NCBI GenBank assembly: GCA_934444735.1
Contig: CAKSDE010000003.1
Span: 105,910 to 169,909, forward strand
Direction: 5' to 3'
Source: an uncultured Clostridia bacterium
Lineage (GTDB): Bacteria; Bacillota; Clostridia; UBA1381
Length of the DNA: 64,000 nucleotides
How positions within the stretch are numbered: position 1 is the first letter of the stretch; every line of letters begins with the position of its first letter. Positions 880 through 39,800 of this stretch are shown one piece after another. The notes beneath the pieces are model-generated. The model was not told the DNA's origin. It worked only from the letters and a program-made list of their open reading frames with translations, and did not search any database. The position numbers were made by a program, and so were the translations under genes.

Positions 880-3800
880 TTATTCTACCGTAATCGCATT
901 ACATATCGCTTTCTGAGTCTTTATCCCGTCCCAGAGCATAATCTTTGCCGTCTGCGTATCTGTTTTTGATACAGTACCGATTGTAACAGTCTTGCTGTTG
1001 CCCTTCGATACGCTTATCGAATCTACAACCTTTGCGCTTACAAGCTTTTGGAAATCTCCCGATTGCTCATATACCGCAATTACCGCAGCCGCATTTTCAA
1101 TATTCTTATCGGCGGTAATCAAAAGCTTGCCGTTTGCGAGATACTCCATAAAGGTACCGCCCGCAAGAACGCTTTCGGTAAATCTTTCGTTTGTAGCAAA
1201 TGTGCTGCCGTCCAAAGTGTCCGTCACCTTAACGCTTGCCTTTATGAATTTACCTGCCGTTTGAGAATCGGGTGTAAAGGTCTTTGCATTTTCATTTTCA
1301 ATTACACTGTATTCCCCGTCCTCTGTATCTGCCGCGTACCACTTATATTCAACCGATGCGTCTTTTGATATACCGTAATAGTTGAAATCCGCGCTGTACG
1401 CGCCGTTATCAGTTTCTGTTATTTTAAGATTTTCCACGCTTATATATCTGTTCTGCACCGCATCGTCAAACCACGCTGTGTTGGTTTCAAACTGACCTGC
1501 CTGTGCCGTGATTATAAATCTTGCGATTCTTTCGCTGTCGGAATCCATAACTTGCCGTCCGTCCAGATACAAGGTATAATGCGTTGTTTTTGCAGCCTTG
1601 CCGCCAAATTCGCCTCTTTGGTTCTCATAGAACTCATCGCCTGACGGATTTGTCTGAACAATTGTTACCTGATGCCAGCCCGGTGTTCTTAAAATTTTGG
1701 TATTTTCGGCAGTTTCCAGGTGTGATACCTTAACCTTGTCCCATCTGCCGTCTGTATTTGCCAGCTGATAATAGTCTGATGCAGAATCGATAACGCCCAG
1801 TGCTTTTGTCATCGAATAATTCTCATACGAAGTGAAGTTCACAGCCGCAGTCGCATTTTCTTTTGCGCCGTTATCATAAAACCACATTTCGGATACGGAA
1901 TTTGAAGCACCCATAGTCCAGTTCCAGATAGAAATTGCCGATTTTCCCGCAGTTTGCTTTGAGCCGTCGTTATGATCGGTATATTCATCAATTCCTCCGG
2001 CAACAGAGAGTGCGCCCTGTCCTCTTCTTGCAATTGCGGTAAGTGCGGAATCATTATCTGCCGTTCTTATCGTTTTCGGTGTAACCGTTACCATAAGGCT
2101 TGCCGAAAGGTCTGCACAGGTTGCCGTTATTGTCGTTCTGCCGTAATCCTTTATTGTGATCTTGCCGCTTGCGTCAACATCTGCCACATCTTTGTTGCTC
2201 GAAGTAAAGCTAAATCCCGAAATATCCGAGATTCCGCGTTCTAAACCGTCTTTTCCGAAACCTGTGATTTTAAGCTGTGCTTCACTCGTTTCGCCTTTTA
2301 CGAAATACGAATCGGATTTACCTAAGCTTATCGACTGATATATGCCGTCAAACACATATACCGGCTCGGAGAATCTCTCGGCTGTTTCTGTTTCTAACGT
2401 CTCATTCTTATTTTCAATTTGGTCGCTGACTCTTACTCCTGCCTTTATGAACTTTCCTGCCGCATTACCGCTCGGCTTATATGTCTTGGAGGTTGCATTT
2501 GCAATCTTTGTATATTCGCCGTTCTCTTCGTCCGACATATACCACTGATAATACGCCGACGCGTCATCTGTACTGCTTGCCCCGTAATACTGCGCATTTG
2601 CAACAAGCGTCTCGCCGTCGTTTTCGTCTGCCGATATTGTAACGTCTGCCAATTCCGTATAATAGAAGGTGTCCACATCGTCAAAATATGCGACATGGTT
2701 TGAATCACCGCCTGCATAAACTCTGATCATGTCCATTGTAGGTTCGGCGCTGCCGTTTTTACCCTCATATATCTTGATTCCGTCAAAGTAAACCGCATAG
2801 CTGTCCGGTCTGCCGTTTTTAGCATTTGTGTTTCCCGAAAGTCTTTTCTGAATCATTGTAACCTGGTGCCAGCCTTTGGTTCTTGCTATCCCCAAGTCTG
2901 TAGCTTTATCAACGTAAACACTTCCGTTATACATATTATTCGGCAAATGCTTTACCATTTTGTAGGTTGTATCTGCCGAGTTGATTACTCCGTACGCTCC
3001 GCCATACGCCCATGACTGGTATCTTCCGAAATCAATTGCCGCCTCTGCGTCGGTGTTTTGACCGTTATCGTAAAAATATGCGGTAGAAACAACATTTTCG
3101 ATTGTTATTTCATTATTCATCCAGATAGTTGTCTCTGCCTCAGGCTTACCTGTTGTACCGTTAATCTTTCCTGCCTTAGCAAAAGCACCCTGACCTGTTC
3201 TTGCAACAGGAGTTGCGGATTCGTTGTAATCTTTGTGAAGTCTGCCCTGCCAGCCGGAATGAACATAGTTTCCGGCTGTAACCGTTACCAATGCGCTTGA
3301 TTTTAACCCTTCGCGCTCTGCCGTAATCGTTGTTGTGCCGTAATCCTTAGCTTTTAATATGCCGTCTGCGCCGATCTCTGCAATCTCGGGCTTGCTTGAT
3401 GTGAATGTTACACCCGACAAATCGGATATTGCACGCTCAACGCCCTCTGAGTCGTAGCCTACAAGCTTCAGCTGTTTTTCTTCGTTTTTATTAAGACTTA
3501 ATTCGCTCTTATTGATGCTTATACTGTCATACACGCCTGTGAAAACAAAGCTTGCGTCGCTAAACATCTCTTCGGTTGTGCCGTTATCTGTTACGCTCAC
3601 GCCGACCTTTATGTATTTCTTGTTCCCCAATGCAGCAGCGTCAGGTCTGTATGTTTTCCCGTTTGCACCGTCAATTGCCGAATACTCGCCGTCTTTTGTT
3701 TCCGAAGCATACCACTGATAGCTTGCCGCAACGTCTGCCGATGCAGTTGTACCGTAGTATGTAAGATTTGCCGTCAAAAGCTCGCCATCATTCTCATCTG

Positions 3801-4803
3801 CCGCAATGTTCACATTTTCCAGTGCCATATACTCCGCACGTGACGCATCATCAAAATATGCGTAGCTGCCCTCTGTCGCACCGGCATAACCGTTAATAAT
3901 ATATTTTGTGTTTTGGGTGCTTGTCTGCGCCTGTACTTCTTTTCCGTCCAGGTATACGGTGTAGCTTGTCGATGTTGAATCACTTCCGCTTACAACGTCA
4001 CCCGAGAGATTCTTCTGAACAATCGCTACCTGATGCCAGCCCGGTGTTCTTGCAATTCCGGTGTCTGTCGCATTGGTCATATGCTTGGGATATACTATCT
4101 GATCCCATCTGCCGTCAACGCCGGATATTTTATATGTCGTATCGGCAGCATTGATAACACCGATTGCACCTGTGTTATCGTAATTTTCATGTCTTTTAAA
4201 GCTTATTCCCGCCTCGGAATTTTCGGTTTGTCCGTTATCGTAGAACCATGCCTGCAACACATTGTTGCTCTTTTTGTCGTTTGCGCCCCAGATAAGCGAC
4301 TCTTGTTTTGCCGCCTGCACCTCGGGACCTCCCGATTGATTCCAGTCGCGAAAGGTGGTTATCTCACCGGCAACCTTTAATGATTTTGCGCCGTTTCTCT
4401 GATAGTCTGTCGAACCCGAATCGGTTTCAAAATCCGCTTTTGTATACTCATTCGGCGTAACCGTAACAAGCATACTTGTGCTTATTTCGCCGGATGCCGC
4501 GGTCACAACCGCAACGCCGTAATCGACAAAGCTCATCTGACCGTCTGCGTTTACCCTGACGACATTTTCGTTACTCGATGCATAACTAAGCGCCGTAGGA
4601 TCGTTAATCTGCATCTCCACGCCTTGCGCATCATACGCCACCGGTTCAATATATACCGGCTGTGCGCCTTTTTCAAATACCGACTGCATACTCCCCATGC
4701 TCAGGCTTTGAAATTCTTCGTCAGCCATTACATTAAATGCAAATGTCTGGCACATTCCCAGTGCCGTTAAAATGCTCAATACTCTTTTTGTGTTTTTTTT
4801 CAT
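880..4803 (-). CDS. Secreted surface protein, 1307 aa, made of three roughly 400 aa tandem repeats. Each repeat is Big_2-like Ig domain + concanavalin/LamG-like lectin domain + YQWY beta-sandwich. Ends in a roughly 70 aa C-terminal module.
   Basis: Signal peptide MKKNTKRVLSILTALGMCQTFAFNVMA. Motifs recur three times: VTVTP/VTVTAG (Big_2), WFYDNG...GWHQV.IVQ...Y.VYLDG (lectin-like), YQWY.S...GEY..I..A..KTY.P...GK.IK. C-terminal AVYEQSGDF...KIMLWDGIKTQKAI. Confidence 0.75.
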   Translation of the reverse strand: MKKNTKRVLSILTALGMCQTFAFNVMADEEFQSLSMGSMQSVFEKGAQPVYIEPVAYDAQGVEMQINDPTALSYASSNENVVRVNADGQMSFVDYGVAVVTAASGEISTSMLVTVTPNEYTKADFETDSGSTDYQRNGAKSLKVAGEITTFRDWNQSGGPEVQAAKQESLIWGANDKKSNNVLQAWFYDNGQTENSEAGISFKRHENYDNTGAIGVINAADTTYKISGVDGRWDQIVYPKHMTNATDTGIARTPGWHQVAIVQKNLSGDVVSGSDSTSTSYTVYLDGKEVQAQTSTQNTKYIINGYAGATEGSYAYFDDASRAEYMALENVNIAADENDGELLTANLTYYGTTASADVAASYQWYASETKDGEYSAIDGANGKTYRPDAAALGNKKYIKVGVSVTDNGTTEEMFSDASFVFTGVYDSISINKSELSLNKNEEKQLKLVGYDSEGVERAISDLSGVTFTSSKPEIAEIGADGILKAKDYGTTTITAEREGLKSSALVTVTAGNYVHSGWQGRLHKDYNESATPVARTGQGAFAKAGKINGTTGKPEAETTIWMNNEITIENVVSTAYFYDNGQNTDAEAAIDFGRYQSWAYGGAYGVINSADTTYKMVKHLPNNMYNGSVYVDKATDLGIARTKGWHQVTMIQKRLSGNTNAKNGRPDSYAVYFDGIKIYEGKNGSAEPTMDMIRVYAGGDSNHVAYFDDVDTFYYTELADVTISADENDGETLVANAQYYGASSTDDASAYYQWYMSDEENGEYTKIANATSKTYKPSGNAAGKFIKAGVRVSDQIENKNETLETETAERFSEPVYVFDGIYQSISLGKSDSYFVKGETSEAQLKITGFGKDGLERGISDISGFSFTSSNKDVADVDASGKITIKDYGRTTITATCADLSASLMVTVTPKTIRTADNDSALTAIARRGQGALSVAGGIDEYTDHNDGSKQTAGKSAISIWNWTMGASNSVSEMWFYDNGAKENATAAVNFTSYENYSMTKALGVIDSASDYYQLANTDGRWDKVKVSHLETAENTKILRTPGWHQVTIVQTNPSGDEFYENQRGEFGGKAAKTTHYTLYLDGRQVMDSDSERIARFIITAQAGQFETNTAWFDDAVQNRYISVENLKITETDNGAYSADFNYYGISKDASVEYKWYAADTEDGEYSVIENENAKTFTPDSQTAGKFIKASVKVTDTLDGSTFATNERFTESVLAGGTFMEYLANGKLLITADKNIENAAAVIAVYEQSGDFQKLVSAKVVDSISVSKGNSKTVTIGTVSKTDTQTAKIMLWDGIKTQKAICNAITVE
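1084..4698 (-). repeat. Intragenic tandem triplication of roughly 1.2 kb units. Approximate unit boundaries 1084-2223, 2224-3498, 3499-4698.
   Basis: Three collinear protein segments of roughly 380-425 aa with conserved motif order inside ORF 880-4803. Units are divergent at nucleotide level. Confidence 0.6.
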
Positions 4804-4906: not shown

Positions 4907-6448
4907 TTATATCACCTTAACTGCCGGACTTCCGCTAAACTCAATCTCACCGTAAACACCTTTTACGAAATTTCTCAGAGATATTTCATCTATGTAGCCG
5001 TTTACATACGTTTTTGCCGTTTCACAGAACTGCTTTAGAATAAACGGCGATGTAAAGCTTGCAATTATCGTCTTATCGCGGTCGAAAATAAGCGATGTAT
5101 GCGTTGTTACGGCAGGCGCGCCTATCGGGTTCGGCACCTGATTATCGAGCATATACGCAAATACCAGCAAATCATAATCTTTATTCACACCCGAAAAGTC
5201 CGCATGATAATTGCACCATTGGGTGTAAACCTCAACGCTTGCTCCATGCTTTTCAAATTCGTCTTTTAAAATGTTCAGCTCTTTTCTTTTATCATCGGTG
5301 CTTATGCCGACAAGCCTTATTTTCTTAATCTTTTCCGCATCAATCGGTATCATGCTGTTTTTAATTAAGCACGTGCCGTTTTTTGAGAGTGTATCTACTG
5401 TCCGTTGCGCAAATTCATGTGCATCTTCGCACTTTTCGGTCTTTTTTATCTTTTCCTTCATCTTCATAATTCTCGAAACCGCGTCCTCAACACGCGACAT
5501 CGGGATTTCGCCGTTTTCAACCTTTTCCAAAATATGCTCCACCACTCTTAACTGCGGCCACAAAAGCATATCGCACCCTGCTTTAAAGCACTCAACCTCG
5601 GCATCGTCCTGCTCGTATATCCAGCGCAAAAATCCGCCCATATCCAGAGCGTCGGAAACAACCACTCCCGAAAATCCCATTTCCTCTTTTAAAACCTTCG
5701 TCATCAGATCGTATGAAAGCGTCGCCGGCGGATAAATTCCGTCCACCGCATCATTTTGCAGCGACGGACAGGATATATGCCCGACCATTATGGAATCAAC
5801 TCCCGCATCAATCGCGGTTTTAAACATTCTTCCCGATTTTTCAAGCCATTCTTTTTTTGAGAGCGAATTTTCGGATTTTGCAATATGCTGATTTCTGTAA
5901 TCCACTCCGTCGCCCGGGAAATGCTTTGCGGTACACAAAAGCCCGTTTTCCTGGTAGCCGCGTATCAAATCGGGCAAAAGTGCGGACGCCTTTTCAACAT
6001 CATCTCCGAGCGTTCTTTGCGATACAGCCAGGTTCAGCGGATTGATAATCAGATCACACACCGGCGCAAATGTCCAGTTTATCCCTATTCCTGCCGTCTC
6101 TTTTGCAATTGCCGCCGCATAGTCATATGCTAATGTTTTGCTGTGCGCCGCACCCACAGCCATAACCCCCGGCATCTGCGTTGCGCCGTCAATACTTATA
6201 TTTACTCCGTTTTCTCCGTCCATGCAGACCAGAAGAGGTATTTTGGAATATTTACAGTATTGTGCAATCACGTTATCTCTCGCTTTTTTGTCCTCATTGT
6301 ACGGGCATACTTCACCGCCGACAAACAAGCCGCCGATCGGGTACTGTTTCATGAAGTTTTCGATGCTCCCGAATTGCTTTATATGCGCCTCCGGTTCGGC
6401 TTTTATTATTACCGACTGGCATATTTTTTCTCTTAAAGTTAATTCCAT
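4907..6448 (-). CDS. Glycoside hydrolase family 3 enzyme, intracellular. Either beta-glucosidase or beta-N-acetylhexosaminidase type.
   Basis: 513 aa, no signal peptide. GH3 N-domain motif KHFPGDGVD and SDALDMGG. About 65-70% identical to the paralog at 39827-41362. Confidence 0.8.
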   Translation of the reverse strand: MELTLREKICQSVIIKAEPEAHIKQFGSIENFMKQYPIGGLFVGGEVCPYNEDKKARDNVIAQYCKYSKIPLLVCMDGENGVNISIDGATQMPGVMAVGAAHSKTLAYDYAAAIAKETAGIGINWTFAPVCDLIINPLNLAVSQRTLGDDVEKASALLPDLIRGYQENGLLCTAKHFPGDGVDYRNQHIAKSENSLSKKEWLEKSGRMFKTAIDAGVDSIMVGHISCPSLQNDAVDGIYPPATLSYDLMTKVLKEEMGFSGVVVSDALDMGGFLRWIYEQDDAEVECFKAGCDMLLWPQLRVVEHILEKVENGEIPMSRVEDAVSRIMKMKEKIKKTEKCEDAHEFAQRTVDTLSKNGTCLIKNSMIPIDAEKIKKIRLVGISTDDKRKELNILKDEFEKHGASVEVYTQWCNYHADFSGVNKDYDLLVFAYMLDNQVPNPIGAPAVTTHTSLIFDRDKTIIASFTSPFILKQFCETAKTYVNGYIDEISLRNFVKGVYGEIEFSGSPAVKVI

Positions 6449-22890: not shown

Positions 22891-25800
22891 TTACTTAACT
22901 CTCTTTTCTATAATTGCACCCACGCTGAAAACATAGTTTGTGTCGGTAGGTTGATCAATCACGACCCTTACGGTATGCTTCTTACCGTCTTTCGGGAGTT
23001 CAATCCAATTATGAGGGAACTGAAAATCCTCACTTGAATTAAAATACGTTTTCCATTTGCCGCTTTCCTTTCCGTCAACATAAACAGTTGCCTCCAAGCC
23101 GGCTTTCGATGTCAGATATACAAGACGAACCGCATCGGCATCAGATTTAAATTCAAATTCCGCATTTTGGGCATTTATCGCCTGCATAATCCCGTCTTTG
23201 CAAAATTCAAACTGACGTTCACTCACCGCAAAATTTGAATCTCCGGCAACAAATGCTTTATCGCGCTTTATCCAGTTTCCGGAATATTTCATTCCGGCCT
23301 CCGTTGCACTCCTTGATATATATTCGGTATATTGTTTATTTTCCTCGCACAATGGCTGCTTGTTTTTTGGAGTCTTTATAAAACTTTCAGTATCATTGTC
23401 TATAGCCTCAACAATTGCCTCTGCATACTTTTCATATCCGCCGTGTACGTCCCAGACATTTTCGCCTGTTTTTCTGTACATGGTATCATAATACTTTGCC
23501 AAGGTTAATGATGAATTGGATTCCTTTTGCTTTTCATAGTCACGCATCATATAGTCATGTATATTTACGGTCTTTATACCGTAATAATCCGCAAGTTCTT
23601 GTTTTGACGTGACTTCGGTTTCCCACGATTGCAAAGTTCCCGCAACGGTTTCCGTCGGCAGCGGTGCAAACAGGAATACAACCGCAGGTTTCTTTTCAAG
23701 CCTTTCGCACTGCATAACCATCTGTTCCATATACAGTTTTGCAGAAAGAGCATCAAATTTACTGTCATTTACAGCAAATTCAATAAATACAATATCCGGA
23801 TTGCACGACATAACGTCACGAGAAAATCTCGATGTACCAAACTCCGAATTTGTACCGCTAAGACCTGCATTTACGATTTTTATGTTTTTCACACCGAGCT
23901 TCTTTTTCAATTCCTCAACAGTTGCGGTTTCCCATAATTTTCCGCCCTGCGTTAAGGATCCGCCGATAAATGCTACCGTAAGCTCATCAACATTTGTATT
24001 TATCAGCGTTTGCTTATCGGAATCAACCGGCTGCTGCGGCTCTTGGGTATCTCCCCCCGAAACATAGCTCTTTTCCAATATCATTGTGATTATTTTTGCT
24101 ATCTGTCCGTTTGTTATATTTGTTCTCGGTGAGAACAGCGTCTGTGATACTCCCGTCATCAGCTTTGAATTAACTACCGCTCCGACATATCCTCTTGCCC
24201 ATTCTCCTATCAATTCTTTATCCTGATAAACGTTTATATCTGCCTCTTTGGATAATCCCAATATAATGCAAAGCACCTTTGCCAGCTCCTGACGGCTGAT
24301 ATTATCGTTCGGGCGGAAATTCACGTCCTTGCTGATTATTCCTTTATCAACCATAGTCTGGAGCATTTTTGCATACGGCTCATTTGTATTTACATCCGCA
24401 AATTCGTTGCGATATGCTGTTTCGCTGTAGCCCTGAACCTTGAATATATAAGTTATCAATTCCGATCTCGTTACATATTTGTCCGGATTAAACTTATTTT
24501 CACCGTCAAGGCTCATAATACCGTTTTTGAGCGCATTTTTCGCATATTCCTCCGCCCAGTGTCCGCCTAAATCAACCGGTTCACTGTTATTGGGCTTTTC
24601 TTCGGTTTTTACGGTAGGAACAGGATTTGTCCACGGGATACCTCCGCCGCTGCCGCCGCTTGATCCTCCCGAATGACCGCTCTTTCCGCTTACGCTCTGA
24701 CTCACGCTTACAGCCTCTCCGACAGACGGTTCTCTGTCCGCAACGGGAACCACCTCAAATTTTACCGTCTTTGTTCCGCTGAAATCTATGGTATAATCGG
24801 TACCTGTCGCCACTTTGCTGTCATTGACATACCATGTACAGATTGATTCTGCCTCCGATGCACCGTCTTTTTGTGAAAATTCATATGTTCCCGTCAATCT
24901 CGACCCGTTCTTTGTAATTTTAAGATTTTTGGCTTCGGGTGGTTTTGGCCCGGAAAAAGCCTGTTTGCTCATTGTCGGAGTCCCGTAATACGGTTCATTG
25001 TCCGATGCCGGAGTGACTTCAACCTGTATAAATTTATTCACATCATCTTTTGTCAGTATATAATTCTTTCCGACAGCCCCGTCAATCTTTACATATCCGT
25101 CTTTTTCATTGTCAGAACGATACCACTGATACTTATTTTCCGCCATATTGTCATCTTTATTTACATCGCTCCATGAAAAATCAGCGCTAAGCACTTCACC
25201 GATAAAAGCTTTTCCGTTTATCATCACATTCTCCGCAACAGGTGCCGTTGCCGGTGCAGCAATATTACTTTCTTCCGTTTTACCGGTCTCGGCTGCTGTT
25301 TTCGGTGTAACCCTTACCTTTATAAAGCAATCCTTATATTCCGGCGAAACAGTATATGTATCCTCTGTTGCACCCTCGATAATGTTGTAATTACCGTCCC
25401 GTATATCCGACCAAAGCCACACAACATCGCAATCACCCGCATCACCGTCTACTTGGTAAAAATCATAAGAAGCTGTAAGTTTACTGCCCTCTGCAACCGT
25501 TCCGAAAAGTTTTAAATTCAAGACTCTCGGCGTTTTATTGCTGTTTGAAACAAGCTCTATCGGATAAAGCTTTGTAAATGTGTTTTGTGTCCGCCCCTTA
25601 AATTGCGGTTTGCAAACTGCCTCAAGATATATTGTTCCGCTTACTGCCTCATCGGTTACGTGCAAGACATCATCTTTAATATACACACCTTTAACAGAGC
25701 TGTCGATATTCCAGAAAGTTTTTTCTTTTTCAAGTCCTGCTGTTGTACCAAGCTGATTTCTTGCATCTCCCAAAATCAGGCTTTGTGTTATTTCTCCTTT

Positions 25801-28056
25801 TTCGGGTATTTCAATTCTATCGGGCACAGATGCCGGAATGTCCGCAACTACCAAAGGTCCGATGTAAACGTCATCTATCAGATAATCATATCCTTTTGAG
25901 CCGCTCGGCCAGCAAGTTGCCACTCCGCGTGCCGTAGTATCCTTTGTCGAATAAACCAATCTCCAGATTCTCGTCCATTCTTCTTTACCTGCGGAAATTG
26001 TATCTGATGTCAGACTCTCATCGCCGCTCATTGTATATGAAAGTGAAAAATTGATATATTCTGTGCTTGCATCGGGGTGAACCTTAGCCATGCTTGAAAA
26101 CAAATATGTCACGCCTTGCGATACATTGACGGGATTTGATACAAGACCTGTTGTATTTTGTGTTCTGTTTGTGATTGCAGCACAGTATTTGCCGTCCGAT
26201 GCGTCTATATCTGTAACGGCAAATTTAGGATCGGGGTCACTGTCGTAATGCGTCAGTTTCCACCCTGTTTCACCCTCCTCAAAGCTGTGATTTTTCATCA
26301 GATTTGTAGCGGTATACACATCTTTTTCGATTTTTCCGCTCAATACCGACATAACCGGCGCACCGTACGGCGGCACAACCGCATAAGGTGTCACCTGAAC
26401 TTTTATATATTTCCCCAGCATATCTTCCGAAATCACATATCGCTTTTCGGTCTGTCCGGGAATTTCCGTAAATTTACTTCCGTCATCAGAAAAATACCAC
26501 TGATATTTCGTATCTCCCTCTTCATCTCCGTTTGGATCTTCAAAATCATACCTTGCCTCCATTGTCATACCGACTGCCGCAAATCCCTCAATCGCAACAT
26601 TTTTTGCAACCGGTGCAAGCGGCGGCAAAAGAATATTACTAAACTGCTCTTTTCCCGGCAGACCGTCATTACGTATCGGCAAAGCTTTGAATCTTATATA
26701 TTTATCCGCATATTGTGCATCTACTGCATATTCATCTCCCGATGCACCCGGAATTTCAAAAAAGTTCTTGCCATCATCCGAATACAGCCACGAAACCTCA
26801 ACCATACCGTCTATACCGTCTGTTTGCAAATAGGTATACTCGGCTTGAAGTTTTTCTCCTTCCGAAACGGTTCCCTTCGCCTTTAAATCTTTAACTTCGG
26901 GTATATTTCCCGAATATACCTTTATATCCTCAATCGTTTGGGTTGAAAGCACGCCGATTTGAGTGTTTTTTTCATCCAGTCCCATCACTTTTGAATTATC
27001 AAGCTCAACCCGATAAATTCCGCTCTCAAGGTTTTTACCAAATTTTAACGTATATTTTAAATCGCTTGCAATGCCTGTATATTCAACAGGCTCGCTGCTT
27101 CCTTCACAATAAATTTTGATATTATCCTCATTTAACGTACTCTTGTCCATCTTTCCGCTAAAGCCTATACTAATGCTGTCTGTGTTAAAATATGCGCTCG
27201 TTCCTGACGGATATAACGCTTTTGCCTCTCTGGTGCTGAGATTTTCCGAATATATCACGAAATCGTCTATATCCAGGGTCACGCCCGAAACAGATGCTTT
27301 CTCAAGTTTCATGTTCAGTCCGAGCGTATCTATAACGTTCAGATTATATAGCGGAAAATCATCGCATCCGCCCTGAAGCGCTCTGTTGGATAACGTCCAA
27401 AGTATAGTCCCTGTTTCTTCGTCCGTCCACGCCACATCATATTTTACAATATTTCCCGCAGCGCTTGCATAAAGCGATAAATCCACTTTATACCAATTAT
27501 CCTTTGCAGGATTATTCATATAAAAGTTTGAACCGGGGTATGAGCCAATCGAGCCGTTTTGCCACCGATCAAACATTGTAAGTCCCATGATCTCACAGCC
27601 GCGGCTGCCGCTCCACTGAGATGCTCCCATATTCCATACCGCATTTGATTGCAGTTCCCGGTAGGAGCTTATATCGGTATAGTTGAAAACCAAATCCTTT
27701 GAAAGTGCCGAAATGTCATTGCTTCTTACTTTCATGGATATTTTTGTCTTGCTCTTCGGTGCGATTTTATAGTCGGGAGATATGTATATATCCGGCATTT
27801 CATCAAGATTTGTGGATTTGCCGCGGTCACTGTTTATTGTGATTCTTGCAAATCTGTTGCCGTTTTCCTCCTCATTTGTGAGTACAACATCTCCTGCATA
27901 TGCACCCATTGTCAGTACATCGGTTGTTCCGTCCTCAAAATCGCAGTTGACCGCAAAATCCGATTCGGCATACGCTTTTTGAAACCTTCCCGGGAACACA
28001 GACAACGTCAATGCCGCACTGAGCATATAAGTAATATATTTTTTATTTATTTTCAC
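22891..28056 (-). CDS. Giant (1721 aa) multimodular cell-surface protein. Signal peptide, CBM-like N-domain, five YQWY Ig-like repeats with an embedded CBM4_9-like domain, Gly/Ser linker, three SLH domains, SGNH (GDSL-type) esterase, C-terminal beta-sandwich.
   Basis: Uses a GTG start (AGGAGG 8 nt upstream). Signal MKINKKYITYMLSAALTLSVFPGRFQKAYA. SLH consensus at about 24030-24575 (GHWAEEYAKNAL...FNPDKYVTRSELITY). SGNH blocks I and V at about 23330-23990 (AFIGGSLTQGG...FAVNDS...WDVHGG). N-domain 70% similar to that of 28128-31346. Confidence 0.8.
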   Translation of the reverse strand: MKINKKYITYMLSAALTLSVFPGRFQKAYAESDFAVNCDFEDGTTDVLTMGAYAGDVVLTNEEENGNRFARITINSDRGKSTNLDEMPDIYISPDYKIAPKSKTKISMKVRSNDISALSKDLVFNYTDISSYRELQSNAVWNMGASQWSGSRGCEIMGLTMFDRWQNGSIGSYPGSNFYMNNPAKDNWYKVDLSLYASAAGNIVKYDVAWTDEETGTILWTLSNRALQGGCDDFPLYNLNVIDTLGLNMKLEKASVSGVTLDIDDFVIYSENLSTREAKALYPSGTSAYFNTDSISIGFSGKMDKSTLNEDNIKIYCEGSSEPVEYTGIASDLKYTLKFGKNLESGIYRVELDNSKVMGLDEKNTQIGVLSTQTIEDIKVYSGNIPEVKDLKAKGTVSEGEKLQAEYTYLQTDGIDGMVEVSWLYSDDGKNFFEIPGASGDEYAVDAQYADKYIRFKALPIRNDGLPGKEQFSNILLPPLAPVAKNVAIEGFAAVGMTMEARYDFEDPNGDEEGDTKYQWYFSDDGSKFTEIPGQTEKRYVISEDMLGKYIKVQVTPYAVVPPYGAPVMSVLSGKIEKDVYTATNLMKNHSFEEGETGWKLTHYDSDPDPKFAVTDIDASDGKYCAAITNRTQNTTGLVSNPVNVSQGVTYLFSSMAKVHPDASTEYINFSLSYTMSGDESLTSDTISAGKEEWTRIWRLVYSTKDTTARGVATCWPSGSKGYDYLIDDVYIGPLVVADIPASVPDRIEIPEKGEITQSLILGDARNQLGTTAGLEKEKTFWNIDSSVKGVYIKDDVLHVTDEAVSGTIYLEAVCKPQFKGRTQNTFTKLYPIELVSNSNKTPRVLNLKLFGTVAEGSKLTASYDFYQVDGDAGDCDVVWLWSDIRDGNYNIIEGATEDTYTVSPEYKDCFIKVRVTPKTAAETGKTEESNIAAPATAPVAENVMINGKAFIGEVLSADFSWSDVNKDDNMAENKYQWYRSDNEKDGYVKIDGAVGKNYILTKDDVNKFIQVEVTPASDNEPYYGTPTMSKQAFSGPKPPEAKNLKITKNGSRLTGTYEFSQKDGASEAESICTWYVNDSKVATGTDYTIDFSGTKTVKFEVVPVADREPSVGEAVSVSQSVSGKSGHSGGSSGGSGGGIPWTNPVPTVKTEEKPNNSEPVDLGGHWAEEYAKNALKNGIMSLDGENKFNPDKYVTRSELITYIFKVQGYSETAYRNEFADVNTNEPYAKMLQTMVDKGIISKDVNFRPNDNISRQELAKVLCIILGLSKEADINVYQDKELIGEWARGYVGAVVNSKLMTGVSQTLFSPRTNITNGQIAKIITMILEKSYVSGGDTQEPQQPVDSDKQTLINTNVDELTVAFIGGSLTQGGKLWETATVEELKKKLGVKNIKIVNAGLSGTNSEFGTSRFSRDVMSCNPDIVFIEFAVNDSKFDALSAKLYMEQMVMQCERLEKKPAVVFLFAPLPTETVAGTLQSWETEVTSKQELADYYGIKTVNIHDYMMRDYEKQKESNSSLTLAKYYDTMYRKTGENVWDVHGGYEKYAEAIVEAIDNDTESFIKTPKNKQPLCEENKQYTEYISRSATEAGMKYSGNWIKRDKAFVAGDSNFAVSERQFEFCKDGIMQAINAQNAEFEFKSDADAVRLVYLTSKAGLEATVYVDGKESGKWKTYFNSSEDFQFPHNWIELPKDGKKHTVRVVIDQPTDTNYVFSVGAIIEKRVK
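24030..24575 (-). other. Three tandem SLH (S-layer homology) domains located internally in protein 22891-28056
   Basis: Three roughly 55-60 aa segments with the SLH consensus (W..EY...L...GI..G......F.P...ITR.E.A). Confidence 0.65.
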
Positions 28057-28127: not shown

Positions 28128-31100
28128 TTATTTTATCTCGTCTGCAGCGCAAACCGGAATATAGTCGTTTTCCCACAAAAATGCCTTTGCCGTCATATTT
28201 GCTCTGTCCGCCGTTACATATTCTGCGGACATACCGCTCCACTCTGCACCTTGAGTTACGTTCATCAGGCTCTTGCCCGTCTTAACCGAAACCAAATTCA
28301 GCGAATCACCGTCTTTTTCGTAAAGTGCAATCGCATACATCGGCTTTGCAGCCTTTACGCCTGTGTTGGTATAGTTATATTTAACTTTATAATTATGTCC
28401 CTTTTCGATTACCGTAACCGCATTTCCGTTTTCATCTGTAATCTCTACGCTGTTTGCTACATTTCTTATGCATATATCATCAACATCAAATGTAATATTA
28501 TTAAGGAGTGCCGAAATTGTGTCATCACTTCTTAAAAGTCCCGTGAACGAGAACCCAATGTCCAGTATCTTGTCATCTTCTTTCAGACTCCAGTTATCTA
28601 CGGTTTTATCTGCAAGCGACGCCTCCAGCATACCGTCGGCATTGTACAAATAATAGCTTGCCTTCTCTATCTTACCTTCCGCGTCTGTACTGAATATGGT
28701 TTTTACGGTATACCATGCATTGTCCTCCATTATGCTTGAATCAGCCAAGGATTCGCCCTTTGCCTGCTTTTTATCGGGCATCCACCAGCAGGTTGCCGTC
28801 TTTTCCTGATACGGCATAACACGAAGATCTTTGTCCGAGAGATTATATCCCCAAATCTGATATATATTTCCGCCGAAGCTGTAAAGATCATTGTACTCGC
28901 TGTTCATCATCATACGCGCACGCAAATCCTTTATTGCATTTTCTCCGACATTGATTCTGAATTTTGACGAAACCTCAATACTGCTGTTCGCTTTCATCTT
29001 GTATCCTGTTTTTACATACATATCCGGCTGTGTACTTGTATATCCCGATGCCTGATTATTATTTGCATATGCTGTGCCTTTGGGTACTGTCATTCTGAGA
29101 TATGTATTGCCGTCCTCGGTTACCGTTTCTAATGTCGGTGTTCCGTTTGCCGCGCCCAACCGCCAGCCGTCTGTTGTTCCGTTTTCAAAATCATATTTTA
29201 TATTATCATTTTCCGATACTACCGTAAAACTGTATTGAGTATTTGCAAATACAGAACCCTCAGCTGTCATTTTATCGCCGAACACAACGGTATATGCTCC
29301 CGATTCCGGAGTCTGTGCAAAATCAATCGTGATTTCTTTGCTTCCTGCATTATAGCTTATATTTGCCGAAACTTCCACACCGTTTTCATCAAGCACTTTT
29401 ATATCCTCATATCCGTTTGCAAAATCCAAAGCCGAGCTGAGTGCAATTACTGCGCTTTCTCCCTGCTCAATAATATCATTTTTTAAGCTTGCGGTCGCAC
29501 GCTCACCCAATTCTTTCACCGTGAAGTTATCAATATCAAATGTTATAGGTGCATCGGCTGTTATTTCCTTTGCAAAATCGGTAAAGTCAAAATTAAGCGT
29601 ATCGATTACGTTCAATCTGCTGATTTTCGCAACAGGATCATTGGCAATATTCTGCTTTACATTCCATATAACATTTCCGTCCTCATCTGTTATATACATC
29701 CAAATCTGTCCGCATTCCGAATCACTGTTATAAAGCTTAACATTAACGTTATACCACTTATCTGCCGCAATCGGGCCCTTACCTAAAGATGTTGACGCAT
29801 AAAGCACCGTCTTATTCGCATCAAGCTTATTAAAGATATTGAGTCTGTCATATCTGCCCGTCCAGTTTGTGTCTTTGGTAAATCCCCAAAGCTTTCTTGA
29901 ATTTTCGATCTCATTTTTTGTATTTTCGTTTTGGTTTACAAGCATTGAGAAACAGGTATTTGTCAAATCCGAGAATCTCACCTTCATGAAAATATCTGTC
30001 CAGCGCTTATCGGTCAGAGCATATCCGCTGCCGTTTGCAAGCGATATTGAAAGATTCGGTCTTTTACCAAAATCATTTTCTTCTCTCCAGTCACCGACCA
30101 TGCTCACTCTTGCATACTTATTTCCGTTTTCTTCGGTTTGAACGCTCATATTGACTGTACCTTGCGAAGCATTAAGAGTCCAGTTGGAGGGTATTTCACC
30201 ATCTTCAAAATCATACTTTTCTTTCGTTCCTATCTTTTGTTCGGTTACGATGAATGTAAATTCATATTCATCAAGTGCATATCCGAGCACCGTCATACTT
30301 TCCGGCAATGTTACGGTATATCTTCCGGGAACAAGTGTTTCATTGGGTGTAATGATAATTCTGCTGTTTTCATTATCATATGTTGCTGTTGAGGAAATAA
30401 GCTCCGCACCCTTTTTAAGCACTACATTTCCTAACATACTTTCCAAACTGTCCGGCTTTGTGCTGAGCTGCACCTGTATATCGGAGGCACTCTCTCTTTC
30501 GCCCTCCGAAACAAGCGATACCTTTGTATTTACCGCATCCGGGTTATAAACTCTTAAATCATCTATGTCCAAGGTTACCCCGGAAACAGTTGCAGGCACA
30601 ACTCTTAAATTCAATCCCAAAGTATTGATTGTTTCCAGATTATAGAGCGGCAGACTTGCCTGATCACCCTGAAGCGCTCTGTTGGAAAGCATCCAAAGCA
30701 CTGTGTTATTTTCTTCGTCCGTCCATGTAACATCATACTTCACAATCTTTCCGCTTGTATTTGAGTAAAGCGTCATATCCACCTTATACCAATTATCCGC
30801 CGCCGGATTATTCATATAAAAGTTTGAACCCGGGTATGATGCAATCGCTCCGTTTTTCCACTGATCGAACATCGTAAGCCCCATAATATTGCAACCGCGG
30901 TTTGCATTCCACTGTGAACGCCCCATTTCCCATATAGTGCTTTCTCCTATTTCCTGATAAGTCTTACCGATATAGTTAAATACAAGCTTTCTCTCAAATG
31001 CAGCGATATTATTTGTCCTCATCTTCATGGAAATCTTAGTTTTGCTGCCCGGTGCTATCGCATAATCGGGAGATATGTATACATCGGGCATAACTGCAGG

Positions 31101-31346
31101 ATCTGTAGAATTAGCATAATCTCCGCTTATGGTAACTCTTGCAAACTTATTTCCGTTTTCCTCCGCATTGCTCACATCTACCGTTCCTGCATGCTCACCG
31201 ACCGTCAAGCCGCCGACTGTTCCGTCTTCAAAATCCAGGTTTATAAATGCAGAAGCGTTTTCCGCAAAAACCTGCGGCAGAGTTACTCCCTGCAAAAGCA
31301 TTGTCCCCGTCACCAGAGCACCAATAATTTTTCTTGTTTTTTTCAT
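28128..31346 (-). CDS. Secreted 1072 aa protein with three copies of a roughly 250 aa CBM-like (FEDG...ENGNxF/YARV) domain separated by Ig-like spacers. Ends in the roughly 70 aa C-terminal module.
   Basis: Signal MKKTRKIIGALVTGTMLLQGVTLPQVFA. First domain roughly 70% identical to the N-domain of the adjacent 1721 aa protein. Two further divergent copies (KYDFEDGEIPSNW...; IKYDFENGTTDGW...). C-terminus AIALYEKDGDSL...KAFLWENDYIPV. Confidence 0.7.
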   Translation of the reverse strand: MKKTRKIIGALVTGTMLLQGVTLPQVFAENASAFINLDFEDGTVGGLTVGEHAGTVDVSNAEENGNKFARVTISGDYANSTDPAVMPDVYISPDYAIAPGSKTKISMKMRTNNIAAFERKLVFNYIGKTYQEIGESTIWEMGRSQWNANRGCNIMGLTMFDQWKNGAIASYPGSNFYMNNPAADNWYKVDMTLYSNTSGKIVKYDVTWTDEENNTVLWMLSNRALQGDQASLPLYNLETINTLGLNLRVVPATVSGVTLDIDDLRVYNPDAVNTKVSLVSEGERESASDIQVQLSTKPDSLESMLGNVVLKKGAELISSTATYDNENSRIIITPNETLVPGRYTVTLPESMTVLGYALDEYEFTFIVTEQKIGTKEKYDFEDGEIPSNWTLNASQGTVNMSVQTEENGNKYARVSMVGDWREENDFGKRPNLSISLANGSGYALTDKRWTDIFMKVRFSDLTNTCFSMLVNQNENTKNEIENSRKLWGFTKDTNWTGRYDRLNIFNKLDANKTVLYASTSLGKGPIAADKWYNVNVKLYNSDSECGQIWMYITDEDGNVIWNVKQNIANDPVAKISRLNVIDTLNFDFTDFAKEITADAPITFDIDNFTVKELGERATASLKNDIIEQGESAVIALSSALDFANGYEDIKVLDENGVEVSANISYNAGSKEITIDFAQTPESGAYTVVFGDKMTAEGSVFANTQYSFTVVSENDNIKYDFENGTTDGWRLGAANGTPTLETVTEDGNTYLRMTVPKGTAYANNNQASGYTSTQPDMYVKTGYKMKANSSIEVSSKFRINVGENAIKDLRARMMMNSEYNDLYSFGGNIYQIWGYNLSDKDLRVMPYQEKTATCWWMPDKKQAKGESLADSSIMEDNAWYTVKTIFSTDAEGKIEKASYYLYNADGMLEASLADKTVDNWSLKEDDKILDIGFSFTGLLRSDDTISALLNNITFDVDDICIRNVANSVEITDENGNAVTVIEKGHNYKVKYNYTNTGVKAAKPMYAIALYEKDGDSLNLVSVKTGKSLMNVTQGAEWSGMSAEYVTADRANMTAKAFLWENDYIPVCAADEIK

Positions 31347-31388: not shown

Positions 31389-33959
31389 TTATCTGAATAC
31401 CACGCACATTCTTGCACCGTTTGCGGCATAGTGAACATACATCTTATCGCCCACTCTGACCTCCGCAAGATTTGAAATATACACATCATCATTTTGTGTA
31501 TCTATCATAATTATGTTTCCTTCAGCCTGCAGTACATATTCTTCGTTTAACGTAAGCACTTTCATATATCCGTACGTTCCGAGAGTCGGATCAACTGCCG
31601 TAACATACCCGCACATACTGTTGTAATAGTTAAATACCGAATCGTAAAATTCATCACAGTTGTTGTCCGTAAATATAACCGACGCAGCTTTTAAAGCATT
31701 AAACTGATCAAAGCTTACTCTCAAAAGAGTCCCCGGTTTTAACCAGTTCTTGCTCGATAAGTCTATTAACTCTTTTAGTGTTTGAGAACAAGTCAGCTGA
31801 TATTTCTCGTTGTTCTGCGATTTTTTCTTTGATTCTTGATTTACAAGTATGCCCTTTAATACATAAACCGGTTCATCTTCATCATCAAGCCCTTCTCCGA
31901 CACTCTTTACATACATCCAATATTCGTTTTCGTTTGCAATTTGTGAAGGCGGCGTCCCCGCTGTTCCCACTCTGCACATCAGAAAATCGTTTGGCGTATA
32001 CATTTCAACATAAGCAAGTGTATTTCCGCCGCCCATAGCCGAACCGGTTGTTACCGAATACTGCTCAGTCTTGGCGGTATCGCTCGGGATTCTGAACACG
32101 ATCGCATCATTCATAAGAGAATACTGGGTTTCTTTAAACCATTTTGCATTGCTCCCGAGTGTAACAGTTCCCGTATATCCCGATAGGAGCCTGTACTCAT
32201 CATCCTTTTCTTCAAAATTATCGATAAAGGTATCAATAAAGCTGATCTCTCCCAGGGTTGTTACCGAGAACCCTGCATCCATCACGGTTTCGCCCTCTTT
32301 TGCCTTATAACGTATAACCTTATCGGTCATTTTATTGTTTCTTATAGTATCTACCGCATTCTCGGCACTGACTCCCGTTTTCCCGTCAAGCGTAATTTTA
32401 TCTTTTAAAGTATACGTTTTCCATTCGCCGTTTTCCGTAAATATTTCAGCAGTCACCTTATCCGTTTCATCATCTTTCCAGATTTTTCTCAGATATGCAT
32501 ATGAATATTGGCTGCTCGGCTTAAATCCTGCGATATATCTGTCGTCCGAAACATAGAATGTACCGGTCGAATTAAGCTCAATCTTTCTTGATTCGCTTGA
32601 ATTTCTGTATGACGATGCGATATAGTAATCACGCTTATCTATCGTCACCTTATTTTTCTCTGTGTCAAAGTCGCTCACGCGCCCGGTCAGCTTTGTGCTG
32701 CTCACGCTGATTTCTTTAAAGCTGCCGTCACTGTTTTGCATAAACTTTATCGTGTCATTTGTAACAATCTGCGTCCAGTCAAAATCCGCCCCGTTCTTTT
32801 TGCATATCAGAACATCATCTTCACTCATATTGATTTCACTCGAGCCGTTTAATTTAATGCCGTTTCCGAGAGTTATCTTTTTGCTGTGCGCATTTGCTGA
32901 TGCCACCGTACAATACATATATTCCTTTATTATAAGGCAGTCATACTTTTCGTTCTTCTTGCTCTTTGATACGGTAAGCGTTCCGTCCATATTCTTATAA
33001 TTATCGAGAATACTTATATCCGTTGTAACGTCCCAATTGCGCACTATATATTTTATATCCTTTAACGGTATGCGCTTTTCTTCTCCGCTTTTCGTTGTAT
33101 AATAAATATAGCTGTCCAATTGATCGATATTTTTAAAATCAACCGTTACACTGTCCTCGCTGTTTTCTCTTTCGGCATAAAGAACGGTATATTCGTCACC
33201 GTCTTGTTTTACATATGCCAAAACTCTCATTCCGAGGTATTGCTCTATTCCCGAATTACCTTTATAATAAGATGCTCGATCTATAAACACCTCATCTTTT
33301 CTCAGCTGTGTCTTTGAAAAAAGATTCTTTTTATAGATTGCGTCTACAAATCCTTTGACTTTGACAATCGAGAATTTGTCCTCCAAAAGCGAGTTATTAG
33401 AAATTTCAAATTCCTGTGCCGTACCCGAAAGCTTTACCTTAACATACTGCGAGTTAAGCGTATTCCATACAAGCACCGCAAATTCGCCTGCGGTTATCTC
33501 TTTTTTCGCGTCATATGAAAGACCTTTTAGTAATCCCAGCCCTTGCGCTGTCTCCTCAACCGATTGTTCGGGATAGATTTTTTTGTATCCCAAAATATCA
33601 TTCATATAATCTACGGCTTCTTCCATCAAAACCGTTCTCTCGTCTGTTCCCTGCTCTTTTACATCTCTTCCGCGAAGTGTCTCGGCGCTCCATGTAAATT
33701 CATCATACCGCAGCGCGCCCGCTTTTGCGGAATACGAAATAAAGCCCATCTTATTAAGCATATCCATATATTTTATATGTGCCGCATCCGCGTCCTGCTC
33801 ACCATTTTCCAAATACGCTCCCGTATCATACCTGTACACATCGTCCATGTACTCATATTCATAAACGTTTTTATAATCGGTTTTCGCCATAGCTGCACTC
33901 TCTAAAAGGCACACCGAGGCAAGCAAAAGCCCTGTCGTCCTTAACAATACTTTTCTCAT
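31389..33959 (-). CDS. Secreted 856 aa protein of unknown function with an SLH-like N-terminal region. Paralog of 50534-53491.
   Basis: Signal MRKVLLRTTGLLLASVCLLESAAMA. Collinear weak similarity to 50534-53491 through the middle and C-terminal regions. No recognizable catalytic motif. Confidence 0.55.
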   Translation of the reverse strand: MRKVLLRTTGLLLASVCLLESAAMAKTDYKNVYEYEYMDDVYRYDTGAYLENGEQDADAAHIKYMDMLNKMGFISYSAKAGALRYDEFTWSAETLRGRDVKEQGTDERTVLMEEAVDYMNDILGYKKIYPEQSVEETAQGLGLLKGLSYDAKKEITAGEFAVLVWNTLNSQYVKVKLSGTAQEFEISNNSLLEDKFSIVKVKGFVDAIYKKNLFSKTQLRKDEVFIDRASYYKGNSGIEQYLGMRVLAYVKQDGDEYTVLYAERENSEDSVTVDFKNIDQLDSYIYYTTKSGEEKRIPLKDIKYIVRNWDVTTDISILDNYKNMDGTLTVSKSKKNEKYDCLIIKEYMYCTVASANAHSKKITLGNGIKLNGSSEINMSEDDVLICKKNGADFDWTQIVTNDTIKFMQNSDGSFKEISVSSTKLTGRVSDFDTEKNKVTIDKRDYYIASSYRNSSESRKIELNSTGTFYVSDDRYIAGFKPSSQYSYAYLRKIWKDDETDKVTAEIFTENGEWKTYTLKDKITLDGKTGVSAENAVDTIRNNKMTDKVIRYKAKEGETVMDAGFSVTTLGEISFIDTFIDNFEEKDDEYRLLSGYTGTVTLGSNAKWFKETQYSLMNDAIVFRIPSDTAKTEQYSVTTGSAMGGGNTLAYVEMYTPNDFLMCRVGTAGTPPSQIANENEYWMYVKSVGEGLDDEDEPVYVLKGILVNQESKKKSQNNEKYQLTCSQTLKELIDLSSKNWLKPGTLLRVSFDQFNALKAASVIFTDNNCDEFYDSVFNYYNSMCGYVTAVDPTLGTYGYMKVLTLNEEYVLQAEGNIIMIDTQNDDVYISNLAEVRVGDKMYVHYAANGARMCVVFR

Positions 33960-39500: not shown

Positions 39501-39800
39501 CACATATATAATATTGCTCTTTTTTCCGAGAATATCGCCGTAAACCGTATCGGTTATACTGTCTCCCATATTTATTTTTATCTCGCTCTGATTTTTAATA
39601 TTTGTCTTAAAAATACCCGAGCCTTGATTTATATATAAAATTTCGTTTAAACGGTTCGTTACAATAACCCCGGTTTCATTTTCTCCTGCATCTATCGCGA
39701 GCTTTCCGTCATCGTCCCACATTGCCGAAAAATCGGCATATGCATTTAAACTTACCAATCCGCAGAATAAGCATATCAAAATAAAAGCAACTTTTTTCAT
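36570..39800 (-). CDS. Secreted 1076 aa beta-helix enzyme paralog with an extra N-terminal small beta-helix domain and an internal copy of the roughly 70 aa module
   Basis: Signal MKKVAFILICLFCGLVSLNAYA. Two YVSP.GND.N.GT motifs (aa about 97 and about 425). Module at about 38580-38813 (IAAVYGKDGILKEM...IKIFVWDSFKRLVPL). Core ARYPDSGY, ELNSEGEWYFDKENN, TLDSGAIYAG. ATGA overlap with the upstream gene. Confidence 0.7.
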   Translation of the reverse strand: MKKVAFILICLFCGLVSLNAYADFSAMWDDDGKLAIDAGENETGVIVTNRLNEILYINQGSGIFKTNIKNQSEIKINMGDSITDTVYGDILGKKSNIIYVSPKGNDSNDGTLYSPLLTVSAALAAADTGDTVKLLGEVAADSVDCGKKVVISGGILDISQNESFSLSGDIELSDITLKNAPQEKIIISGSAKIGKNAVFKNDADIECGGNIRIESGNYNNITVNNSAVYILPEVSIKSKIYTSDSSMLVFEGCDFSKKLNESIGKIFILGKNGTVKKEEKKIKVYPEDERAYSVNGEEYITEGVIPDENGVYRIDFEYNVKLHSVGVSQNNGTYKLTVAAVNNNLNNEVPIVRIIAAVYGKDGILKEMTSGEYDSKNITMQYSSAKMTANDTIKIFVWDSFKRLVPLAGVSLGTVRALTAAKKEFYVSPSGNDANPGTITSPFATLKKAQSAARLAGEGTTVYFRKGEYYFPSKCNFTSSDSGITYKAYNGEKAVFTTVKSMKGSMFEEVPQDIKNRIKNENAKEKVLRIKLDANGFGSIPEIEDRSYSNKAINPILFSDSKRMTLARYPDSGYIHVTSVIDSGVTTDKSGNISERRPIAFSSDELAGKMSEWGDSDGFYIFGYLGADWSDVFYKCDFTEDKKLMTANANSGYAVRKDDRFYCANILEELNSEGEWYFDKENNYIYIYPFADFNENSKIKYNARNTSLDSFINIKGAENLVIDGIVFDGISANDYCIKMNDYCDGVVIKNCEFTNIVCRAAGINKSENCRIESNWAHDLSRGVFVADGGSAATLTPGKNIITNNKIERFAQEKTTYEPAIALYGVGNKASYNEISDSAHMAIGFYGQKCIIEYNEIYNVCNDTLDSGAIYAGLTFTAPGNIMRFNYIHDIENKVKEMTGTATTVVGIYFDERLSGEYVYSNVFENIDRACFIGSGRYNTIERNVMINCPQSVYISRYWTFNESLLDGLKIYENNALWQKEFPWIGETANDEPKDPKYNRVNDNALYNSALPQIPEKYSYLLDPTGNVIFDSTDIFADYDNKDFSILAKSDIYKEIPGFGVIPFGEIGLTGEKGETR

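Follow-up and report, generated by a model that had tools for sequence, protein, structure and literature searches.

Dockerins with their cohesin partners, SLH repeats and CuAO-N domains are terminal add-ons of diverse enzymes. The module described here is placed in a similar way: it recurs in four secreted proteins encoded on a 64,000-nucleotide stretch of DNA (hereafter the window) from an uncultured Clostridia bacterium (GTDB lineage UBA1381; GenBank assembly GCA_934444735.1, contig CAKSDE010000003.1, positions 105,910 to 169,909 of the forward strand). Unlike the Ca-binding, helical dockerin and the helical SLH domain, it has an all-beta fold in the predicted structure and no Pfam match to either. 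The C-terminal domain (CTD) of the type IX secretion system (T9SS) of Bacteroidota is, like the module, a beta-sandwich of ~80–100 amino acids at the extreme C-terminus of unrelated secreted proteins, with many copies per genome; however, it belongs to another phylum and envelope and is strictly C-terminal, and no dedicated machinery was found near the module genes. The tenth and last Ig-like domain of NmSLP from Nitrosopumilus maritimus (PDB 8c8k, residues 1637–1728 of 1734), which its authors speculate may anchor the S-layer to the envelope (PMC11153153), has an 'FVWES' strand similar to that of the module and likewise closes a cell-surface protein at its extreme C-terminus, but it is archaeal, lacks the A-x-Y and K positions and is unresolved in structures.

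The Ig-like domains of GH2 glycosidases belong to the internal structure of a single enzyme family, whereas the module is a mobile terminal unit on unrelated proteins and has no sequence-level relationship to them. The Wzt C-terminal domain (PF14524; PDB 6o14, 8dky) is a cytoplasmic ABC-transporter domain that binds O-antigen caps, a cellular context unlike that of the module. The PLAT/LH2 domain of PLRP2 (PDB 1bu8, residues 339–407) is, like the module, a C-terminal beta-sandwich accessory domain. The module belongs to a known kind, the terminal accessory beta-sandwich modules of Gram-positive secreted proteins; what is unusual in its family is the combination of a sharp motif, a C-terminal bias and a broad range of hosts.

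Many of the large enzymes and adhesins that gut and soil Bacillota place outside the cell have, to our knowledge, no recognised anchor, and their retention at the surface is poorly understood. The carriers of such anchorless proteins include pectin specialists related to Monoglobus, Lachnospiraceae, Oscillospiraceae and Paenibacillus. As a sharply conserved unit that many such proteins have in common, mostly at the C-terminus, the module is a candidate for the missing retention or assembly element.

The module family, its hosts and its fold

The four copies in the window lie on the minus strand, in frame inside long open reading frames (ORFs), and their translations were checked. Copy m1 (883–1179) forms the last 99 residues, up to the stop codon, of a secreted Ig-repeat protein of 1307 amino acids (880–4803, minus strand), in which a signal peptide and Big_2/AIR9-type Ig repeats precede the module. 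Copy m2 (28131–28442) forms the last 104 residues, again up to the stop codon, of a secreted protein of 1072 amino acids (28128–31346, minus strand); this protein has no significant Pfam domain and consists of a signal peptide, three copies of a domain held in common with the SLH protein at 22891–28056, and the module. Copy m3 (38559–38852) is internal, at residues ~318–415 of a protein of 1076 amino acids (36570–39800, minus strand), where it follows a signal peptide and an N-terminal region and stands upstream of a Pel9A-like beta-helix catalytic region that begins at residue 419. Copy m4 (59925–60161) forms the last 79 residues, up to the stop codon, of a beta-helix/GH141-like enzyme of more than 1358 amino acids (59922–64000, minus strand), whose 5' end lies beyond the window. 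In the hosts of m3 and m4 the GH141_M match is weak and sub-threshold. All three complete hosts begin with a typical Sec signal peptide.

With a profile made solely from 120 modules of other organisms, all four copies are recovered among the window ORFs (m1, E = 6.1e-17; m3, 4.3e-16; m4, 8.3e-15; m2, 1.1e-10). The next-best ORF has an E-value of only 0.79, so that the window holds exactly four copies, far beyond chance, and no fifth. When profiles of three copies were run against all six-frame ORFs of the window, the omitted copy was each time the top non-training match, with E-values of 1.5e-7 (m1), 2.8e-5 (m2) and 7.8e-8 (m3) and a weak value of 1.3 for m4. The copies share 21–28% pairwise identity; single-sequence searches scarcely link them and profiles do. 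The pattern noticed in four segments by the original prediction is therefore real, and its placement of three copies at the extreme C-terminus and the fourth inside its protein agrees with the stop codons and with the position of m3. The size of ~70 amino acids proposed there was too short: the domain begins ~30 residues further upstream, measures 79–104 amino acids and includes two or three extra N-terminal strands ('G..k..v.v.N').

The database search with a profile of the four copies, also proposed there, was made exhaustively with HMMER against 1.84 billion cluster representatives and returned 144 proteins at E <= 1e-3. The consensus of 124 aligned regions reads G..k..v.v.N......a.liiAvYD.dGkLl.v ... 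tiKvFvWDSL..MkPLc.a...i., with a variable stretch of 20–45 amino acids between the AvYD..GkL and KvFvWDSL halves. It is the motif seen at first in the window: among the 124 members W is kept in 123, A, Y and P in 117 each, G in 111 and K in 105. Genomic loci were gathered from GTDB species genomes with a hand-made degenerate DNA motif for KxFxW[DN]SLxxMxPx, for which we estimate ~0.5 chance matches; more than 119 loci, a lower bound, carry the motif, and some single genomes contribute two or three. All 80 of the titles among the matches listed name Bacillota or an unnamed bacterium. The taxa among these listed matches comprise metagenome-assembled genomes (MAGs) of Clostridia, Monoglobus, Ructibacterium, Lachnospiraceae, Oscillospiraceae, Eubacteriaceae, Epulonipiscium and three Paenibacillus species. 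The module is restricted to secreted proteins of Bacillota (Clostridia and Paenibacillus). A single cysteine follows directly on MxPL in 48 of the 124 members (~39%), including m1 (..AICNA..) and m2 (..PVCAA..), which is unusual for extracellular domains of anaerobes.

Curated libraries do not cover this family. Scanned against Pfam at E <= 10, the four window copies gave nothing beyond sub-threshold scores, and no Pfam family matched more than 4 of 65 module members at E <= 1. The best match among these 65 is Wzt_C (E = 6.9e-4), to which m2 scores 19.1 bits against a gathering cutoff of 30.4 bits; by gathering thresholds the module falls outside Big_x, CARDB, Wzt_C, Mannosidase_ig, FlgD_ig and fn3. 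No NCBIfam model covers it, and the weak NCBIfam matches in host proteins fall in other regions. A word-indexed homology search found almost nothing, whether started from the four-copy alignment, from the 65-sequence alignment or from that of igN (a second domain, described below), and a literature search found no description of the module. A phage origin or a cell-wall-binding domain of endolysins was considered and rejected: a motif scan of IMG/VR gave two out-of-frame matches in an unlike large phage protein, and tblastn of one module member against 50,697 phage records gave nothing.

The hosts are secreted proteins of unrelated function. A signal peptide is clear in 47 of 63 representative hosts; several of the remaining ones appear to be N-terminally truncated or missed by the simple rule used. 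Their domains include those of wall hydrolases (CHAP in 5 of 63, M23, NlpC/P60), of enzymes (GH3, GH43, BNR_4, pectinesterase, GH28, RGL11, S8 subtilase, DUF4855) and of other kinds (Big_5, BspA-type leucine-rich repeats, Flg_new, ricin lectin, DUF6273, DUF4430, CBM4_9). This survey bears out, beyond the window, that an autonomous module recurs on otherwise unrelated secreted proteins. Since the host functions are unrelated, a role common to all of them fits better than substrate targeting. Cohesins occur in three of the 63 hosts and dockerins in two, and in P0091 and P0103 the module stands together with genuine dockerins and cohesins in the same polypeptide, so that it does not replace them. 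Another host, P0140, consists of a signal peptide, three cohesins and the C-terminal module; in the anchoring scaffoldins of cellulosomes, an SLH or sortase signal stands at the position that the module has in this protein.

The bias towards the C-terminus holds in both collections. The module ends within 15 residues of the C-terminus in 121 of 149 full-length matches of the representative set and in 97 of 125 modules in independent genomic loci, none of which ends 16–60 residues from the stop. The other 28 of these 125, and ~20% of copies in general, are of three sorts: second-to-last tandem copies; copies right after the signal peptide, in pectinesterases, a GH28 protein and a DUF4855 protein; and internal copies such as m3, which has a counterpart of the same length and layout in the locus labelled L004. 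Because of these N-terminal, internal or tandem copies, the module is best described as preferring protein ends, and not as an obligatory C-terminal signal. By our comparison with SLH domains and dockerins, such an end bias resembles that of binding and anchoring modules.

The AlphaFold2 model of m1, built from the 65-sequence alignment, has a mean predicted local distance difference test score of 88.6 and a predicted template modelling score of 0.79. It shows seven beta strands and a long hairpin across the AxYD..G.L turn, and it places the module in the fold class of Ig-like (E-set type) two-sheet beta-sandwiches, a class of folds and not a sequence family. The nearest structures are the Ig-like domains of GH2 glycosidases (PDB 9m0e, 2vzo, 6byc; 9–16% identity); the comparison list also names dextranase, arrestin, lamin and Fn3 domains, and Foldseek with the model gave nothing at E <= 1e-3. 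Sequence searches of the PDB likewise assign the module to no family of solved structures, as no profile match is significant. With the four-sequence profile the best E-value is 0.042. With the 65-sequence profile two marginal matches appear, which we regard as leads only: the PLAT domain of PLRP2 (E = 0.0075, over the 'ALYG..G...' and 'K.FLWN' strands) and, along its full length, the last Ig-like domain of NmSLP (E = 0.013, not significant). In the 124-member alignment, the strands bearing AxY and KxFxW are hydrophobic on both alternating faces. The conserved DSL..MxPL tail probably folds back over Y, F and W as a second small core, in which case the most conserved residues of the module would be structural.

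Anchoring domains and the igN-SLH neighbours

The module is certainly not a dockerin. Neither the window copies (at E <= 10) nor the 65 members (at E <= 1) match dockerin type I (PF00404) in Pfam, and the model is all-beta. No Pfam match to SLH (PF00395) was found in the four host proteins or in their modules. The window hosts that end in the module close with ...AITVE, ...ADEIK and ...TPVTK, with no hydrophobic tail, and an LPXTG regular expression run over ORFs of at least 150 amino acids with a stop codon in 123 loci, 130 module-bearing ORFs included, gave a single, apparently spurious match. No NCBIfam or Pfam match links the module to the T9SS C-terminal domain (TIGR04183/PF18962). The absence of dockerin repeats, LPXTG and a hydrophobic tail, read at first from the letters of the window, is upheld by these scans.

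Proteins that end in the module also have no other recognised anchor. In the window, the four module proteins lack SLH and CuAO-N, and five neighbours carry one of them (SLH with Pfam E-values of 1e-8 to 1e-39); two large neighbours, 31389–33959 and 56177–59902, have neither these domains nor the module. For the genomic loci, the SLH and CuAO-N domains of the window served as seeds for profiles; by these, canonical SLH/CuAO-N occurs in 0 of 78 ORFs with a C-terminal module versus 14 of the 206 other ORFs with a length of 300 amino acids or more (Fisher test, p = 0.013).

Within the window the module exchanges places with such anchors among paralogs. The protein at 22891–28056 (minus strand) has the same N-terminal domain as the host of m2, with 57% identity over the first 270 amino acids of the two, and bears SLH and GDSL in the place of the module. 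Four beta-helix paralogs of 25–31% identity end in different ways: the one at 33979–36573 (minus strand) has a CuAO-N end in the place of the module, that at 59922–64000 has the module, that at 56177–59902 has an unrelated extension of 560 amino acids, and that at 36570–39800 carries the module upstream of the catalytic region. These swapped ends point to an active shuffling of terminal modules within the locus, as far as the paralog sequences tell. Two more anchor-bearing proteins lie nearby: a CuAO-N protein of 314 amino acids (55211–56155, minus strand) and an N-terminal SLH protein of 985 amino acids (50534–53491, minus strand), which has a region of 450 amino acids in common with the anchorless protein at 31389–33959.

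Gene neighbourhood adds a recurrent candidate partner. In each of three Paenibacillus loci that were fetched, the module sits on an unrelated enzyme (a 5'-nucleotidase/nuclease-like, a DUF4855 and a beta-helix protein, the first and third being read from sequence), and each gene is adjoined on the same strand by one for an igN-X-3xSLH protein of 535–631 amino acids, which has an N-terminal Ig-like domain that we call igN, a middle domain and three SLH repeats. An igN-SLH gene also stands beside a module gene in Epulonipiscium (L029) and, more loosely, in L073, L058 and L013. igN is a second uncatalogued Ig-like domain, found at the N-terminus of 3xSLH proteins of ~550 amino acids and sometimes in two or three tandem copies; it has no Pfam match, and its consensus is VTItG..ssGaGkqVtVkV.nP.G.idylDQ..S...G.y.FtY......GtY.V.VGG. 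That igN might be a divergent copy of the module was rejected (hhalign probability 1.4%). The igN genes lie at L005:4497-6143(+), L010:1627-3231(-), L052:5925-7817(-), L029:346-2019(+) and L058:3-1659(-) and in L134–L136, and fusions of igN with the module in a single polypeptide occur in L083 (two paralogs) and L111.

The reciprocal test, in which a hand-made degenerate DNA motif for igN was scanned across metagenomes, gave 11 true igN loci. A module gene is directly upstream of the igN gene in L134, L135 and L136 and two genes upstream in L133. L134–L136 come from related organisms; the enzymes of L134 and L135 are unequal in length, and that of L136 ends at the contig edge. In L124, L125 and L127 no module is present in the sequence available. 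The window has a counterpart at 53493–55214 (minus strand), a protein of 573 amino acids with three SLH repeats at its C-terminus (E = 9.6e-40) and a weak igN match at residues 42–139 (E = 5.7e-4). Over all loci, an igN, SLH or CuAO-N gene is immediately downstream of 11 of 99 module genes and immediately upstream of 8 of 64; one lies within ~4 kb in 20 of 113 loci. These are raw counts. A dedicated neighbouring gene for sorting or processing was sought by clustering the neighbour ORFs of module-bearing ORFs in 113 loci of 8 kb and was rejected: AraC-type regulators are the only recurrent neighbour family without the module besides housekeeping genes.

Proposed surface retention and its rivals

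Based on the above data, we propose that the module is a non-covalent surface-retention or assembly module, a reading to which we give a probability of about 0.45. After export, the module would fold outside the cell and hold its host protein at the cell surface non-covalently, either by direct binding of a cell-envelope polymer or by docking onto wall-anchored SLH or CuAO-N proteins; for one subfamily, the product of the adjacent igN-SLH gene would serve as the partner. It would take the role that SLH, CuAO-N or sortase signals have in its paralogs. The AxYD..G.L hairpin and the KxFxWDSL..MxPL strand and tail probably form the second small hydrophobic core that defines the family, and the variable face between hairpin and tail strand may carry specificity. 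We favour surface retention because the module is shared by wall hydrolases, adhesins, scaffoldins and carbohydrate-active enzymes, because proteins that end in it have no other recognised anchor, and because of the swapped ends and the coupling to igN-SLH. The contrast of 0/78 with 14/206, the architecture of P0140 and the recurrence of igN-SLH lend circumstantial support to an anchoring or assembly role. The dockerin-and-scaffold arrangement to which the original prediction likened the locus is a hypothesis drawn by analogy.

Several observations weigh against this proposal. The nearest structures, the Ig-like domains of GH2 enzymes, are non-binding, and the predicted fold is a generic Ig-like sandwich. 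The strongly kept positions (A, Y, G, L, F/M, W, L, M, P, L) are occupied by hydrophobic residues or residues of turns and look structural. The 21–28% identity among four copies in one genome is low, as dockerins of one species are, in our experience, much more alike. The module is also borne by taxa, Lachnospiraceae for example, that are not known to rely much on SLH. For ~80% of module genes no neighbour carries an anchor, and genes for surface proteins are clustered in any case. The complementarity between the module and SLH/CuAO-N that was first seen in the window stands there and for C-terminal modules in general, but it is not strict: over all module ORFs, SLH/CuAO-N occurs in 4 of 110, a difference that is not significant (p = 0.31), and the four proteins concerned carry divergent, split SLH-like repeats together with non-terminal modules. 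The complementarity is for these reasons a tendency and not a rule.

The main and serious rival, although we consider it somewhat unlikely, is a passive structural end-domain: a stable Ig-like sandwich that caps or spaces protein ends for folding, protease resistance or reach and has no specific ligand. It agrees with the generic fold, with conserved residues that look structural and with the low identity among copies of one genome. In our experience, however, Ig domains that serve as spacers seldom preserve so sharp a motif (AxYD..G.L ... KxFxWDSL..MxPL) from Bacilli to Clostridia, and a preference of ~80% for the extreme C-terminus as a single copy is rare for spacers; a passive domain also leaves unexplained both the missing canonical anchors in proteins with a C-terminal module and the recurrent adjacency and fusion with igN-SLH. 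Even if the module is purely structural, defining it as a domain family would improve the annotation of many 'hypothetical' surface proteins and mark domain boundaries for enzyme engineering. It is distinctly unlikely, in our judgement, that the module is a new family of carbohydrate-binding modules (CBMs) aiming host enzymes at dietary or environmental polysaccharides: it is also found on peptidoglycan hydrolases, an S8 protease, leucine-rich repeat/BspA and Flg_new proteins and cohesin scaffoldins, which have no common polysaccharide substrate, the PDB profile search matched no CBM chain, and, apart from the probably buried Y, F and W, the alignment has no evident conserved platform of solvent-exposed aromatic residues.

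A sorting or secretion tag of the T9SS kind, read by dedicated machinery and perhaps removed after export, would account for a beta-sandwich of ~90 amino acids with which many unrelated secreted proteins end, in several copies per genome, and for conservation that lies, as in T9SS CTDs, mainly in structural motifs. We nevertheless hold it to be very improbable, given that ~20% of copies are N-terminal, internal or tandem, that the clustered loci contain no conserved neighbouring processing gene, that the T9SS tail has no Pfam or NCBIfam match in the module, and that the hosts have ordinary Sec signal peptides and come from Bacillota that are monoderm by taxonomy. The surface-retention reading also has a bolder form, itself unlikely, in which the module would be the 'plug' of an unrecognised protein–protein surface-display system of Bacillota, parallel to cohesin–dockerin. 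Module-ended enzymes, adhesins and scaffoldins would dock non-covalently on wall-anchored holders, which in one subfamily would be the igN of igN-X-3xSLH proteins encoded immediately downstream, and the module and its holder gene would move as a cassette between unrelated enzymes. If true, this docking model would add a new surface-display system to gut and soil Bacillota.

Further observations on the loci

The four proteins with split SLH-like repeats are L049:3484-7998(-), L079:2-6013(-), L080:3297-6701(+) and L097:352-7053(-), and their modules are N-terminal or internal. Each has two SLH-like segments ~50–300 amino acids apart, with domain E-values of 1e-17 to 3e-7 under the window-seeded profile; Pfam finds no SLH at E <= 1e-4 in L080:3297-6701. 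The segments may represent a divergent, split variant of SLH.

In three loci from different MAGs (L008, L046 and L108), a module protein is followed by a protein of ~704 amino acids and then by an N-terminal-SLH protein; the module protein has ~820 amino acids in L046 and L108, and that of L008 runs past the end of the locus. In the window, the N-terminal-SLH protein of 985 amino acids (50534–53491) stands beside a GH42-like protein of 713 amino acids (48167–50308).

The window is a glycan-utilisation region, with two GH3 genes (4907–6448 and 39827–41362), GH38 and GH28, three AraC-type regulators, an FGGY kinase, a D-lyxose isomerase and a class II aldolase. A SIS-domain protein (47011–47829) is encoded beside a BadF-type ATPase (45887–47008), and the two were read as amino-sugar recycling genes. 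The protein at 28128–31346 recurs in identical form on a metagenome scaffold of 113 kb in ENA (ERZ28614265), where its neighbouring genes are also the same. Several surface-protein ORFs are tightly packed: 36570–39800 and 33979–36573 overlap by 4 nt, as do 55211–56155 and 53493–55214, and 53493–55214 and 50534–53491 are one base apart, an arrangement consistent with co-transcribed, translationally coupled genes. Two minus-strand ORFs, 43794–44687 and 44626–45915, overlap and match different halves of Pfam DUF6259, with profile positions 8–137 in the upstream ORF and 150–270 in the downstream one; this arrangement around 44626–44687 points to a gene that is frameshifted or divided, or else to a misassembly.

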